This document shows positions 6,764-20,093 of a stretch of DNA of 64,000 nt, one piece after another. The stretch comes from Candidatus Latescibacterota bacterium (GTDB lineage: Bacteria; Latescibacterota; UBA2968; GCA-2709665). A model generated the notes under the pieces. The model did not search any database and was not told the DNA's origin. It saw only the letters and a program-made list of their open reading frames with translations. The DNA is taken from contig OZ241917.1 of assembly GCA_965203805.1 (NCBI GenBank), forward strand, positions 2,624,001 to 2,688,000. Direction: 5' to 3'. Position 1 is the first letter of the stretch; each line of letters starts with the position of its first letter. A program made the position numbers and the translations under genes.

Positions 6764-7278
6764 GCCGCGGTCCTCGCCGTCTTCCGATGGTTCCGTCGGG
6801 GAAAGGTCCTCTACCAAGTACCGGAACACCACGCACAGAATGGCCGAATAATTGGCGAGACTAAGGCCTTGGGAGCCATTGCGATGGTCCATTCAATCGA
6901 AAGCTGCACCCATCACCTTTTGCGGTTGGCGACTAAAGCCTCTGCGGGGTCATTTCGTCAAGGAACCTCTGATCAACCAGAGGGAATGAGCAAGTTGTAA
7001 CTTATGGGTCGTTTCGGAGGCTGTTTATGTTGAGAGGGTCGTCATCTTTCGGGTTTGCACGGGTGATTCCGGCCCCGGATGCGCTCGGTGCCGGCCATTT
7101 TGGCCGCCAGCGTCCGAATTGGAGGCACGGGTGCCTATGTAGTAGCCAGTTCCTGACGTGCCATATGGAAGTTAGCCAAGGCAAACAAGGTGAACAGATG
7201 CGCCGTATTCTTCGCCAGACCGCGATACCTGACCTTTCGGTAGCCCCACAGGTGTTTGATGATCCCAAAGGGATGTTC

Positions 7279-7314
7279 CCTGTCTGCGTGCGTGAGACAG
7301 CACGCACAGGCAGG
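7279..7314. repeat. 36-bp palindromic insertion A (CCTGTCTG...CAGGCAGG)
   Basis: CCTGTCTGCGTGCGTGAGACAGCACGCACAGGCAGG. Removal restores RARVEHPF. Confidence 0.9.
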
Positions 7315-7850
7315 GACCCGTGCGCGCGTGCGATTGCTCTTCTTGTTGAACGAAACATCCGCGCAGTTGAGCCGCTTGCCCCGGCGGGCCTTGCGAAGCA
7401 CTCGCCATTCCACGTCGTTGGCTTCGGCCCGTTCTTTTCGCGTCTGATCCGCATAGGCCTTGTCGCCGTAGATGGTCTTTTCTTTTCCGTGCAGACAGGC
7501 ATCCATCGCCTGCGAATCATGCACCGAAGCGGGGGTGGTCACCACACTGTGCACCCGTCCCTTCACATCCGCGCCCACGTGCGCCTTCATGCCGAAATGC
7601 CACGTGTTGCCCTTCTTCGTGCTGGCCATTTCAGGATCCCGTTTCCGATCCTTGTTCTTCGTCGAAGAAGGCGCGTGAATGATCGTGGCATCCACGATCG
7701 TGCCTTCGTTCACGATCAATCCCCGCCTGGACAAGTAGCGCTTCGTTTGCCGAAACAACGCTTCCGTCAACCCATGGTGCTCCAGAAAGTGACGGAATTT
7801 GCAGATCGTCGTCTCATCAGGTACGCCGTTGATGTTCACACCCGCAAAGC

Positions 7851-7869
7851 CCTGCCTGCAGCAGGCAGG
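7851..7869. repeat. 19-bp palindromic insertion B (frameshifting)
   Basis: CCTGCCTGCAGCAGGCAGG. Removal restores the frame and SMRRFAGVNINGVPDETTI. Confidence 0.92.
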
Positions 7870-7979
7870 GACGCATCGACTCCACGTCGTAGAGACTGTC
7901 TTCCATTCCCGGATCGCTCAATCCATACCATTGTTGCATAAAGTAGATACGCAGCATCACCTCCGCACCGATCGGACGA

Positions 7980-8006
7980 CCTGCCTGCGCCGACTCGGCA
8001 GGCAGG
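7980..8006. repeat. 27-bp palindromic insertion C
   Basis: CCTGCCTGCGCCGACTCGGCAGGCAGG. Removal restores YPKPGNGRRPIG. Confidence 0.9.
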
Positions 8007-8222
8007 CGACCGTTGCCAGGTTTCGGATACTTCCTCTCAATCGATTTAAGCAGTATCTCCCACGGCAACACCGCATCCATCTCTTTCAGAAAACGTTCCC
8101 TGCGCGTCTGCTTCTTCTTCGTCCTGTACGCCAGATCCGAAAAACTCATTTGTTTCATCCCTGGGCCCCTCGTTCTATGTCGATCCATCAGAAATCACAA
8201 CACGACGGCTCACGCTCCAATT

Positions 8223-9845
8223 CTACGACTTTCTGCATGGCGTGCCAATAGGTAACTTAATCAGAGCTTCCTCAAATAGATCAGCTTGCTTTGCCCGGCG
8301 CCGTGTAGCCCACTCGGGAAACAACTCGGCAACAGAATTCGCGGGGACATTTGCCAACTCCTTTGGCTCTAGCTTATGCAGTCCGCCTCCGTAGACGCGA
8401 CCCTCCCCGAGCATCACCCCCGGAGAGATTTCGTTCAGGAACTCCCACACCTGTCGCTTTAGTATGGGCATTTCCTGGATGGCGCGATTTAAGGGTTCTT
8501 TCGGGTACAACATCAAATACACGTTTGCGGCCGTTGCCTTGGAATTGTTCAATATGAAACGAAACGGCCTTCCGCTCTTCCTGTCGCTTCGGCCCAGATA
8601 GGTACAGACGTACGGAGCCGGCGGCCGGTATTCCTGTCTGTACCAAAGCGCACGATGCCGACAGATATAGCGATCACTTACGCCCTCCGCCTTGCCTTCC
8701 TCCAGATACGTCCAAAGACTTGGATAACGTTTCTTGATTTCGCTTTCCATCCACGGTGGATCGAGCAGGAACAATCGCAGTTTGAGAAGCGGATTGCCCA
8801 TTCGATCGCCCTCGACTTCGTCCTCGGGCACATATCTCGGGCTAGGAAGGATTGGCTTGAATGCATCCATAGGCAGCTGGCGCTGATGGATCTGCTCGGC
8901 TGACAGGATGAAATAGCTGTTGTTACCCGTAGCCAAACCCCGTTTTATCTCGAAAAAGTCACCCAGCACCGGTCCATCGGCTGCTTCATGGTTCTGACTC
9001 TTAGGATAACGTGTCCATTTTGGCTCACGGCGCAAAGTCTCGAGAGGAACCAATCGATCCAACACCGGTTGTTCTAGTGTTCCGCCATAGGTGAACCGAA
9101 CTTGATGCTGTGGTCGAGGAGGTTCGTTCCGGAACCACACCACAGCCGACGACACAAGCGCATCGCAGAATTGCACGTCATTCGGATCGAAGCGGTGAAT
9201 GTGATGAAGCGTCACCTTGTCGAGCAGGTAGCGCTTCACCGCTACCCCGTACTTCACGTCCATGAATTCGCTGGGGATCAACCAGCCAGCCAGCCCGCCG
9301 GCGGTCATCCACATATGACTTATGCAGAGGAAATAGCAATAAAGCCCGGCCAGACCGTTAATTTTCACGCCGGAAGCGGCTTGCGCGCGCGACCTTAACA
9401 GCTTTTTCTCCCCACTGTCAATATGGTGGTGCCGCACATAGGGCGGATTACAGATCAGCAGGTTGAACCGATCGGAAGCCTCTGGCGCATCGGCCCGCGT
9501 GAAGTCTTCCAATATAATTTCCAGACCCGTCTTGCCCCACAGCGTCGTTGCCGGCCTGCCGTAATGCGGATCTATCTCATATCCAATGGCAGCGTCGATA
9601 CGGGCTTGGGAAAACGCGTGCAGCAGCGCCGAATAGAAAGCGCCAGTCCCGATAGCCGGGTCGATGAAACGCAATCTCTCGTTCTTGCCGAGACGCGCCT
9701 TCGCGTATCGCTGAATATCGACAGCAAGGCTGGTTGGTGTAGCGAACTGCCCCATTCTGTTTCGTACGGCTGCGTCTCTTCTCGCATCCAGTTCTTCCTG
9801 AAGTGCCAGCCGCCGAGTCTCTAATCCTGCAACCGCCATATTCAT
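8223..9845 (-). CDS. Type II N6-adenine DNA methyltransferase (Eco57I/TaqI-like gamma class); C-terminal tail replaced by IS sequence
   Basis: GQFATP, motif I FIDPAIGTGAF, motif IV NPPY, IKRGLATG.N.YF and GRVYGGGLHKLEPKEL. Confidence 0.9.
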   Translation of the reverse strand: MNMAVAGLETRRLALQEELDARRDAAVRNRMGQFATPTSLAVDIQRYAKARLGKNERLRFIDPAIGTGAFYSALLHAFSQARIDAAIGYEIDPHYGRPATTLWGKTGLEIILEDFTRADAPEASDRFNLLICNPPYVRHHHIDSGEKKLLRSRAQAASGVKINGLAGLYCYFLCISHMWMTAGGLAGWLIPSEFMDVKYGVAVKRYLLDKVTLHHIHRFDPNDVQFCDALVSSAVVWFRNEPPRPQHQVRFTYGGTLEQPVLDRLVPLETLRREPKWTRYPKSQNHEAADGPVLGDFFEIKRGLATGNNSYFILSAEQIHQRQLPMDAFKPILPSPRYVPEDEVEGDRMGNPLLKLRLFLLDPPWMESEIKKRYPSLWTYLEEGKAEGVSDRYICRHRALWYRQEYRPPAPYVCTYLGRSDRKSGRPFRFILNNSKATAANVYLMLYPKEPLNRAIQEMPILKRQVWEFLNEISPGVMLGEGRVYGGGLHKLEPKELANVPANSVAELFPEWATRRRAKQADLFEEALIKLPIGTPCRKS

Positions 9846-19433: not shown

Positions 19434-20093
19434 TTACCCATACAGTTCAACGGCCCGCCAGAGGTACCAGCTCGCTACGGACCGGTACGGACGCCAGATT
19501 TCACCGTGTTCCAGCAGATCCGCGGGCTCGGGCAGCCCGCTCGACCCATAGGTGAGCATAAACCCCTTCCTCACGCCCAGGTCCTTGACCGGCAGCACGT
19601 CCGCCCGGCCCAGATCGAATATCAGCATCATCTGCACGGTCCACTCGCCCACCCCCCGGACACGCGTGAAGCGCTTGATGATCTCGTTGTCGGGCATCCC
19701 GTCCAGCCGCCGCCCGGGCGGGACATCGCCCTCGAGCGTCTTTTCGGCAAGGTCTTTTATGGCCGCCACCTTGGCCCGGGACATGCCTGCGCCGCGAAAC
19801 GCTTCGTCGGGCAACGCCAGCACCTGTTCCGGCTCGGGATGCGTGCATTCCGGAAACAGATCCAGAACCCGGCCGTAGATCGTACCGGCGGCCTTTCCGG
19901 AAAGCTGCTGGTACACAATCGAGCGCATCAGCGCCCGAAACGGAGAGTAGGGCGCTCGCGCTTCCAGCAGGCAGGGGCCGGCGCGCTCCATCAATTGTCC
20001 CAGGGCCGCGTCCACCTTCGACAGCGCCGCAACCGCTTCTCCGGGATCGTATGTCAATCCGCTCGCGATATCCGGTACCACATTGCGATTCAT
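19434..20093 (-). CDS. alkA: DNA-3-methyladenine glycosylase II (AlkA/HhH-GPD family)
   Basis: LMRSIVYQQLSGKAA, HhH motif VRGVGEWT.QM.LIF.LGR.DVLP..DLG, WRPYRSVA. Confidence 0.85.
   Translation of the reverse strand: MNRNVVPDIASGLTYDPGEAVAALSKVDAALGQLMERAGPCLLEARAPYSPFRALMRSIVYQQLSGKAAGTIYGRVLDLFPECTHPEPEQVLALPDEAFRGAGMSRAKVAAIKDLAEKTLEGDVPPGRRLDGMPDNEIIKRFTRVRGVGEWTVQMMLIFDLGRADVLPVKDLGVRKGFMLTYGSSGLPEPADLLEHGEIWRPYRSVASWYLWRAVELYG

Follow-up and report, generated by a model that had tools for sequence, protein, structure and literature searches.

The 64,000-nt window analyzed here comes from a Candidatus Latescibacterota genome (5.87 Mb, 59% GC, single contig; G000 below, with its relatives labeled G001 onward) and contains an insertion sequence (IS) of the IS5 family whose transposase gene carries three short hairpins, A, B, and C. 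Judged from their sequences, these three hairpins and their relatives elsewhere in the genome are almost certainly mobile mini-elements. The steps documented below are insertion, the lack of any target duplication, nesting of hairpins within one another, re-use of sites, and very recent activity. The overall explanation that we favor, and regard as reasonably probable, is that A, B, and C are recent exact insertions of a genome-wide mini-hairpin family that would move as single strands in the manner of RAYT transposition and persist under relaxed selection.

Hairpins A, B, and C (Table 1) have exactly the coordinates, sizes, and sequences that the initial annotation of the window had given them. 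Removal of precisely their 82 bases (36 + 19 + 27) yielded, as that annotation had also claimed, a single open frame of 313 amino acids on the minus strand with the motifs RARVEHPF, SMRRFAG, and GNGRRP. A and C are free of stop codons in frame, and B breaks the IS5 reading frame. The pattern CCTGYCTG..CAGGCAGG was confined to these three places in the 64 kb (5 strand-wise matches), so the annotation was right that the window contains no other complete copy, and 100 shuffled versions of the window with dinucleotides preserved were all free of matches. The half-sites reported near 2441 and 4480 do exist as lone 8-mers without a partner arm, as do further ones at 19968, 50465, and 60115. The 36-mer of hairpin A recurs at three further loci in the genome and at many loci in five relatives. 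Hairpin C is positioned at the stem/loop edge of a local hairpin (CGGTCG/TCGTC/CGATCG on the minus strand, slashes marking the edges), and the sites of A and B lie in DNA of weak structure.

Insertion into the IS5 was established from empty alleles, the comparison that the initial annotation had proposed. Forty relatives were searched for related IS5 copies, and these were aligned to the IS5 of the window. The copies from G002 and G013 (78-81% identity) lacked A, B, and C exactly to the base, and the copy from G003 lacked A, its contig stopping short of B and C. Contigs assembled from public runs represented the probable source organism (X1), a coral metagenome (X4), a sponge metagenome (X5), and an RNA sample (X6). 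All three hairpins were found in contigs of X1, a sample that may not be independent of the genome assembly, and their presence there makes an assembly artifact unlikely. In X4, a 1286-nt contig of the same IS5, at ~99% identity and with 9 other differences, lacked all 36, 19, and 27 nt, and a 6483-nt contig joined position 6957 to position 8272, giving the IS-empty allele of the same locus. Contigs of X5 had kept B and lacked A and C. None of the empty IS5 alleles showed a duplicated base. The occurrence of three IS5 states in different samples indicates that the hairpins entered an element otherwise changed by ~1% or less. Nine substitutions (window positions 8034-8059 and 8125-8126) separate the window IS5 from the hairpin-free metagenome copy, and seven of them are packed in 26 bases and shared with the sponge-metagenome copy; this cluster looks like a small recombination patch.

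The hairpins belong to a large family. Iterative peeling of minimal matches recovered 266 events in G000 (231, 30, and 5 by nesting level), representing 98 strand-collapsed variants with a minimum length of 19 nt, in line with the initial description of elements that are small and internally variable. A reversed control pattern gave 2 matches in this genome vs. 258 for the hairpin pattern. The same backward pattern was matched 55 times in G090, a genome of the same class, possibly owing to an unrelated palindrome family, and 0-9 times in other genomes. Lengths peak at 33, 31, 30, 27, 36, and 19 nt, most events measuring 19-37 nt and nested ones more. All fold as hairpins: the outer stem has 7-9 bp and is often followed by a 2-nt bulge, and the inner stem, which varies, is capped by a small loop. 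The closing stem of the family has 8 bp, CCTG(C/T)CTG being paired with CAGGCAGG, and 193 copies have the ends CCTGCCTG and CAGGCAGG. In the other 73 of the 266 copies a T in one arm (A on the other strand) produces a T.G or C.A mismatch, and not one compensated T/T copy was present; a stem mismatch that is conserved and never compensated marks one strand as the folded one.

An empty-site paralogue could be aligned across the junction for 120 of 248 copies, nearly always without a gap, which demonstrates that insertion was exact and duplicated no target. The 19-mer has filled and empty sites of its own at no fewer than three unrelated places, and the existence of this 19-nt form indicates that the closing stem alone is sufficient. 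Together with the empty IS5 alleles and the nesting, these paralogues bear out the proposal that tiny non-autonomous mobile elements had inserted independently of one another. When copies at most 300 bp apart were grouped, 163 of the 204 groups consisted of a single copy. Nine of 41 genomes contained at least 60 hairpins and the remaining 32 contained 24 or fewer; across 125 genomes of the phylum, bursts were limited to one family plus G024, with a few recognizable copies in distant families. Within G000, a dense intergenic run of one 31-nt variant at ~3.24-3.47 Mb of contig C1, embedded in a composite repeat (CCCTCTCC..GGAGAGGGTC, then the hairpin, then GGGGAGAGGTCTG), explains why two 244-kb bins stand out with 46 + 27 copies.

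Collapsing copies by flank similarity reduced 230 junctions to 146 independent sites. Of these, 79 are G/C junctions, and the flank profile has no feature beyond G at -1 and C at +1. The bases at -1/+1 are complementary at 98/146 sites vs. 29/146 at -2/+2. Site windows of 44 nt folded at -10 kcal/mol or below in 24% of cases, vs. 4.1% of random and 1.3% of GC-matched windows. Typical targets are the foot or the stem/loop edge of other palindromes, such as GAGGGCA/TCC-TGCCCTC, GCGGGCG/TCC-CGCCCGC, and GGTGGGG/CAGACATTCCTGTCTG (slash at the junction), and the bias toward palindrome-rich short repeats is real. Particular bonds were also used more than once. The IS5 of G007 contains hairpin A, 36/36 identical and at the same bond, lacks B and C, and carries another related 27-nt palindrome elsewhere. 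Across the segment that it has in common with G003, this copy is 97.2% identical to the IS5 of G003, which has no A, and 88.8% identical to that of the window. On either side of A the G007 sequence agrees with G003 and not with the window, so A is not a conversion patch there. Since A is present in G007 and in the window and absent from G003 and from the near-twin in X4, it must have been inserted identically or lost exactly two times, and the pattern means recurrent site-specific insertion or precise excision.

Five copies of the triple-hairpin IS5 were found in the genome, with different flanks and the separate duplications TCAA, TTAA, TTGA, (A)TGAG, and GTAC. A tblastn search with the read-through protein revealed no other related transposase in the genome. 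The five copies might reflect four moves by a lost helper or by leaky expression, conversion of five clean copies, hot sites that were hit each time, or hairpins that can leave. A second IS family with 8 copies has a hairpin-free subfamily of four; its hairpin-bearing members are three copies of one subfamily and a fourth in another. The hairpin-bearing members differ from copy to copy, one of them having lost the stretch between a hairpin and the next hairpin site, and these differences indicate that hairpins accumulate copy by copy in that family. In one copy of a DDE_Tnp_1_4 IS (G000:C1:1369844-1369877 vs. 434584-434735) the DNA between a 33-nt hairpin and a 19-nt hairpin site ~100 bp away is missing, which suggests that hairpin ends can mediate deletions. 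Hairpins within other transposases are often out of frame (19, 20, and 25 nt). Removal of hairpins at the RNA level was considered and set aside: the sole RNA contig over the IS5, from X6, lacks A, and it is uninformative since the DNA of the same sample, X4, lacks A too.

The initial annotation had suggested that the elements insert preferentially into mobile or foreign DNA or are tolerated only there. A total of 138 of the 230 junctions lie in the repeated 4.0% of the genome, many of them copies of one event, and after collapsing the figure was 55 of 146 sites. Non-coding DNA accounted for 100 of the 146. Unique coding sequence (CDS) had 28 sites in 4.87 Mb (5.7 per Mb), unique non-coding DNA 63 in 0.751 Mb (84 per Mb), repeated CDS, largely IS genes, 18 in 0.135 Mb (134 per Mb), and repeated non-coding DNA 37 in 0.100 Mb (369 per Mb). 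Repeated CDS is thus ~1.6 times as dense in sites as unique non-coding DNA and ~23 times as dense as unique CDS. With a 1.6-fold difference from neutral DNA and, as the strong signal, a ~23-fold exclusion from host genes, relaxed selection is enough, and the placement of the hairpins is probably due to it and not to targeting. Tolerance fits these counts. Preferential targeting does not, near-equal density in neutral DNA being roughly the observation that the annotation itself had named as speaking against it. Pfam searches of 36 flanking open reading frame (ORF) pieces showed that hits inside genes are mostly in transposases (IS5, two DDE_Tnp_1_4 families, DDE_3, and Mu-type) and that most host-gene hits lie close to an end of the gene, as does one upstream of dnaE's PHP domain. 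Insert length was a multiple of three at 20/28 sites in unique CDS vs. 93/146 overall, which gives no clear signal. Two 33-nt hairpins (G000:C1:3455127-3455159 and 2955805-2955837) lie in frame deep in long unique ORFs, of which one encodes a ~1045-aa protein resembling heparinase II/III and the other, of 549 aa, has no Pfam match; they are possible peptide insertions in host proteins of the kind made by Rickettsia palindromic elements (RPEs).

RAYT was the only type of HUH transposase found in the genome. Two Y1/HUH genes are present and both score as RAYT (104 and 90.5 bits vs. the NCBIfam cut-off of 80), RAYT-1 being a 201-aa ORF at 4533512-4534117 of G000 and RAYT-2 a domain in frame within a DUF1156/methyltransferase-like ORF. 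No IS200/IS605 TnpA of another type was detected in the genome, and a search with the TnpB zinc-ribbon model gave no hit; a Y2_Tnp search gave none in G000 and none in 14 control genomes either. A scan of hairpin pairs spaced 250-3500 bp revealed no dedicated gene in the interval. Orthologues of RAYT-1 (77-91% identity) are present in 6 of the 9 genomes with at least 60 hairpins and in 0 of the 32 with 24 or fewer, these related genomes not being independent samples. RAYT-1 is followed after 7 nt by one hairpin, and RAYT-2 is immediately preceded by another, each being a secondary insertion into the loop of a different repetitive extragenic palindromic (REP) element, and the RAYT-2 loci of G008, G011, and G016 show the empty form of the REP. 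Among ten RAYT orthologue loci, mini-hairpins stood beside RAYT only in G000, in this secondary form. The initial annotation had proposed looking for an HUH/RAYT gene flanked by the same hairpins; two RAYT genes are indeed present, and their native flanks carry other palindromes.

RAYT-1 (L001, G000:C1:4532312-4535533) is located amid ~200-bp repeats whose palindrome bears a GTAG tag (GTAG-GGCAGGGATGCCC) and has a core found ~30 times in the genome, surroundings that look like an ordinary REPIN-RAYT system. The ORF with RAYT-2 resembles DUF1156/D12 methyltransferases, has open frames of 1203-1441 aa, and is conserved in four genomes (L002, G000:C1:4546470-4549700, ORF from 508 on; G008:C1:1912806; G011:C2:164031 and 169774; G016:C1:3072108). 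The palindromes at these loci are GCGGGCG-TCC-CGCCCGC upstream and GCGGACG-GGA-CGTCCGC downstream. RAYT-1 and RAYT-2 are 10-16 kb apart in G000, G008, and G011, and G016 has a RAYT-1-like domain in the same open frame as RAYT-2. A third RAYT type (G002, G005, and G006; loci L032, L027, and L030) is flanked by regular arrays of GGCAGACAGGAATGTCTGCC in inverted pairs with CCACC/GGTGG tags, and the genomes that have it contain few mini-hairpins (22, 2, and 4, respectively). G000 has ~51 copies of the GGCAGACAGGAATGTCTGCC REP core and no RAYT of the third type, and the foot of this REP is a favored mini-hairpin site. Turning two local REP types inside out makes their loop-proximal halves identical to the hairpin ends (CC-TGCC with GGCA-GG and CC-TGTC with GACA-GG), a likeness in sequence that may be taken as a lead and not as a result.

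On the explanation that we favor, A, B, and C are three separate, recent, and exact insertions of non-autonomous mini-hairpins, which would move as folded single strands, a RAYT-type HUH tyrosine transposase acting in trans to cut and join them. They enter DNA without target duplication, usually at a G/C junction and frequently where a palindrome has its foot or its loop edge, with re-use of particular sites. In the IS5 they are hyperparasites of the transposon, B destroying its frame, and they probably persist there because selection acts against insertions in host genes and spares those in transposon genes and non-coding DNA. That RAYT itself is the mover we hold as possible rather than probable. 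Several observations weigh against this explanation. G015 (248 hairpins, complete), G024 (133, complete), and G007 (139, draft) have no orthologue of RAYT-1 or RAYT-2, and their hairpins are no more decayed, the ratios of full hairpins to 8-mer half-sites being 0.54, 0.70, and 0.48, respectively, vs. 0.55 in G000. RAYT-1 loci in G001, G008, G011, and G013 have a GTAG-tagged REP and no mini-hairpin within ~1.3 kb, and RAYT-2 is bracketed by its own pair of palindromes, which are not mini-hairpins. No target tetranucleotide is conserved among the 146 sites, and the orientation of the T-variant showed no bias with the direction of replication (20 and 22 vs. 18 and 13). All read evidence consists of assembled contigs, in which rare variants are hidden, and the density test was based on a home-made, crude codon-usage gene caller (4554 genes, 85.5% coding) and on flank-similarity collapsing.

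The hairpin-rich genomes without RAYT-1 or RAYT-2, their hairpins being no more decayed, the other REPs at RAYT genes, and the lack of strand bias would suit a mover outside the RAYT/HUH class, such as a recombinase, a nuclease-ligase, or the capture of hairpin oligonucleotides by repair or template switching at stalled palindromes via short homology. The hairpin ends (CCTGCC.. ..GGCAGG) also resemble the loop-proximal arms of the REPs that were entered, which suits annealing-guided capture. We nevertheless find such a mover somewhat doubtful: no candidate enzyme for it was found, RAYT-1 co-occurs with high hairpin numbers, and the absence of duplication, the single folded strand with its mismatch, and the hairpin targets are single-strand features of HUH transposition as known from IS200/IS605. 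The initial annotation had also raised the idea of a system, useful to the host, that directs palindromes to mobile or foreign DNA and so silences it. Hairpins lie within the ORFs of at least five transposase families, B breaks the IS5 frame, and the uncollapsed junctions are concentrated in repeats, all as such a system would have it. The concentration falls to 55 of 146 on collapsing, however, repeated CDS exceeds unique non-coding DNA only 1.6-fold, and most sites are non-coding. Moreover, palindromes are preferred as targets whatever their kind, the REPs beside RAYT genes among them, hairpin-bearing members are found in a second IS family as well, and the hairpin-laden IS5 stands at five separately duplicated sites with no intact relative in the genome. 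A system of this kind is very unlikely.

The same five identical copies, with no other related transposase detectable, could be taken to mean that the hairpins act as a reversible brake, leaving DNA precisely or, in the case of B, being bypassed by a +1 shift (CUU-U after the hairpin), with low transposase output as the result. A and C being in frame without stops, and the need for two identical insertions or two precise losses of A, are compatible with this. The five copies can, however, also be explained by a lost intact helper, gene conversion, or repeated hot-site hits, the frequent out-of-frame hairpins in other transposases do not fit a brake, and the only RNA contig comes from a sample whose DNA lacks A as well; we consider a reversible brake quite unlikely. 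The possibility that the inserts are artifacts of assembly or sequencing is practically negligible. Short GC-rich palindromes can trouble some platforms, and no evidence for an artifact was found; the same family appears in many independently assembled genomes, and Logan contigs of short-read runs display all three IS5 states in different samples.

The initial annotation had likened the hairpins to REPs and RPEs. Comparison was made with sections of PMC3733652 (Di Nocera et al. 2013), PMC3116915 (Bertels and Rainey 2011), and PMC2884548, of which the first describes an unpaired GTAG or CGTC tag at one end of REPs and mentions RPEs. The resemblance to REPs held in part. Like members of REP/REPIN-RAYT systems, the mini-hairpins are imperfect palindromes, short (20-40 bp) and rich in GC, that number in the hundreds (266 events, all of which fold, where more than 100 copies characterize REPs/REPINs), are mostly non-coding with occasional intragenic copies, show patchy bursts among relatives, and occur in a genome with RAYT genes. 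Unlike REPs, they have no unpaired GTAG/CGTC tag, the ends CCTG... and ...CAGG pairing together; they are mostly single, in contrast to the inverted doublets of REPINs and bacterial interspersed mosaic elements (BIMEs); and they are not native flanks of RAYT genes. Nesting in one another, clean empty sites indicative of recent exact insertion, and a smallest member of 19 nt further set them apart from REPs.

The small dispersed repeats (SDRs) of heterocystous cyanobacteria, which Elhai et al. are said to have described in 2008, are reportedly 21-27 nt long, dispersed, and nested in each other and in other repeats; their mobility was reportedly deduced from filled and empty sites, and the enzyme was not identified. 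If so, the mini-hairpins share with them very small size, dispersal, nesting, and filled and empty sites, and differ in sequence families and phylum as well as in their fixed 8-bp closing stem with variable interior, their G/C target, and their use of palindrome feet and loops. RPEs measure ~100-150 bp and lie in frame in functioning host genes. Like them, the mini-hairpins are palindromic selfish DNA within protein-coding genes that is sometimes read in frame; unlike them, they have only 19-37 nt, are rare in host genes, and show no clear enrichment for multiples of three there, many of the 28 sites in predicted unique CDS being near gene ends. The likeness to RPEs thus fails in size and placement. 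IS200/IS605 elements, which also have miniature derivatives associated with palindromes, transpose as single strands through an HUH enzyme, with distinct left and right end hairpins and a conserved target of 4-5 nt. The mini-hairpins likewise duplicate no target, lack the usual terminal inverted repeats, depend on a hairpin, insert exactly, and possibly excise exactly; they differ in consisting of one hairpin, in having neither a conserved one-side target nor a replication-strand bias, and in that no TnpB was found. Classical MITEs (inverted-repeat transposable elements of miniature size) have terminal inverted repeats and a duplication made by a DDE enzyme, whereas the mini-hairpins duplicate nothing. 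On this comparison we would rate the mini-hairpins, which behave like REPs and, by report, like cyanobacterial SDRs, as a variant within the miniature mobile palindromes of the REP/SDR kind. A literature search on the motif and on nested REP-like hairpins found no description, the supplements of PMC3733652 (intragenic REPs, REPtrons), which might list related repeats, lying outside its coverage.

With the silencing reading set aside, the evidence that the data provide for mobile palindromes of very small size is solid and unusually clean. The same IS5 with none, one, or three hairpins at ~99-100% identity in natural samples supplies exact before-and-after sequences, an exact empty paralogue exists for half of one genome's copies, and one hairpin hit or left the same bond twice. 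To our knowledge, movement of REP-like palindromes has never been watched directly, and a minimal 19-nt substrate with two candidate enzymes provides the materials for a biochemical test of REP-type mobility. The hairpins form a second tier of selfish DNA that lives on transposons. In practical terms, they make transposases and a few host genes resemble pseudogenes in annotation. A bolder and unlikely extension is a self-propagating layer of DNA with a minimum of 19 nt that repeatedly homes to defined bonds and leaves without trace, its ends being "inside-out" halves of REPs cut by RAYT (CC-TGYC... ...GRCA-GG). If this were true, the triple-hairpin IS5 would have been still mobile while it spread to five sites, the hairpins would be reversible switches on transposase genes, and RAYT strand transfer at the feet and loops of hairpins would have left in them its first clear footprints within a genome.

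Table 1. Positions of the hairpins and of the IS5 features in the window.
Feature	Position	Strand	Remarks
Hairpin A	7279-7314	+	36 nt, T-variant (CCTGTCTG...CAGGCAGG); 12 extra in-frame residues within RARV/EHPF
Hairpin B	7851-7869		19 nt, bare 8-bp stem with 3-nt loop; frameshift within SMR/RFAG
Hairpin C	7980-8006		27 nt; 9 extra in-frame residues within GNGR/RP
IS5-family insertion sequence	6962-8271	-	1310 bp counting the three hairpins; one of five copies 99.9-100% identical in the genome
Target duplication TCAA, left copy	6958-6961		flank of IS5
Target duplication TCAA, right copy	8272-8275		flank of IS5
Left terminal inverted repeat GGAACCTCTGATCAA	6962-6976	+	
Right terminal inverted repeat, reverse complement GGAAGCTCTGATTAA	8257-8271	-	
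C-terminal transposase fragment, DDE domain	7135-7839	-	hairpin A inside, in frame
N-terminal transposase fragment, DUF772 region	7817-8158	-	hairpin C inside, in frame; ends 17 codons past hairpin B

The host element is an IS5 by its IS5-type DDE transposase, its terminal inverted repeats, and its 4-bp duplication. The transposase fragments match Pfam DDE_Tnp_1 and DUF772 and score 236 bits with the NCBIfam IS5 family model NF033581 (cut-off 140), which confirmed the family that the initial annotation had assigned, and the ends and duplication that it had called intact are present, the 15-nt inverted ends matching at 13 of 15 positions. An Rfam scan of the window returned two tRNAs only. The IS5 is inserted in a methylase gene of the Eco57I type (8223-9845, minus strand), ~8 codons ahead of where this gene naturally stops; its ORF has 540 aa with the IS5 and 532 aa in the IS-empty allele of the coral-metagenome contig. 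Among the closest relatives of the transposase, the three that match over the full length (L045, L047, and L050) give 222 codons, 12 below the query, which indicates that the 12-residue insert is absent there. These closest relatives (loci L045-L058, 62-82% amino-acid identity) come from metagenome-assembled genomes labeled Gemmatimonadota, Latescibacterota, and Rhodothermales, a distribution of sequences suggesting that this IS5 moves between phyla.

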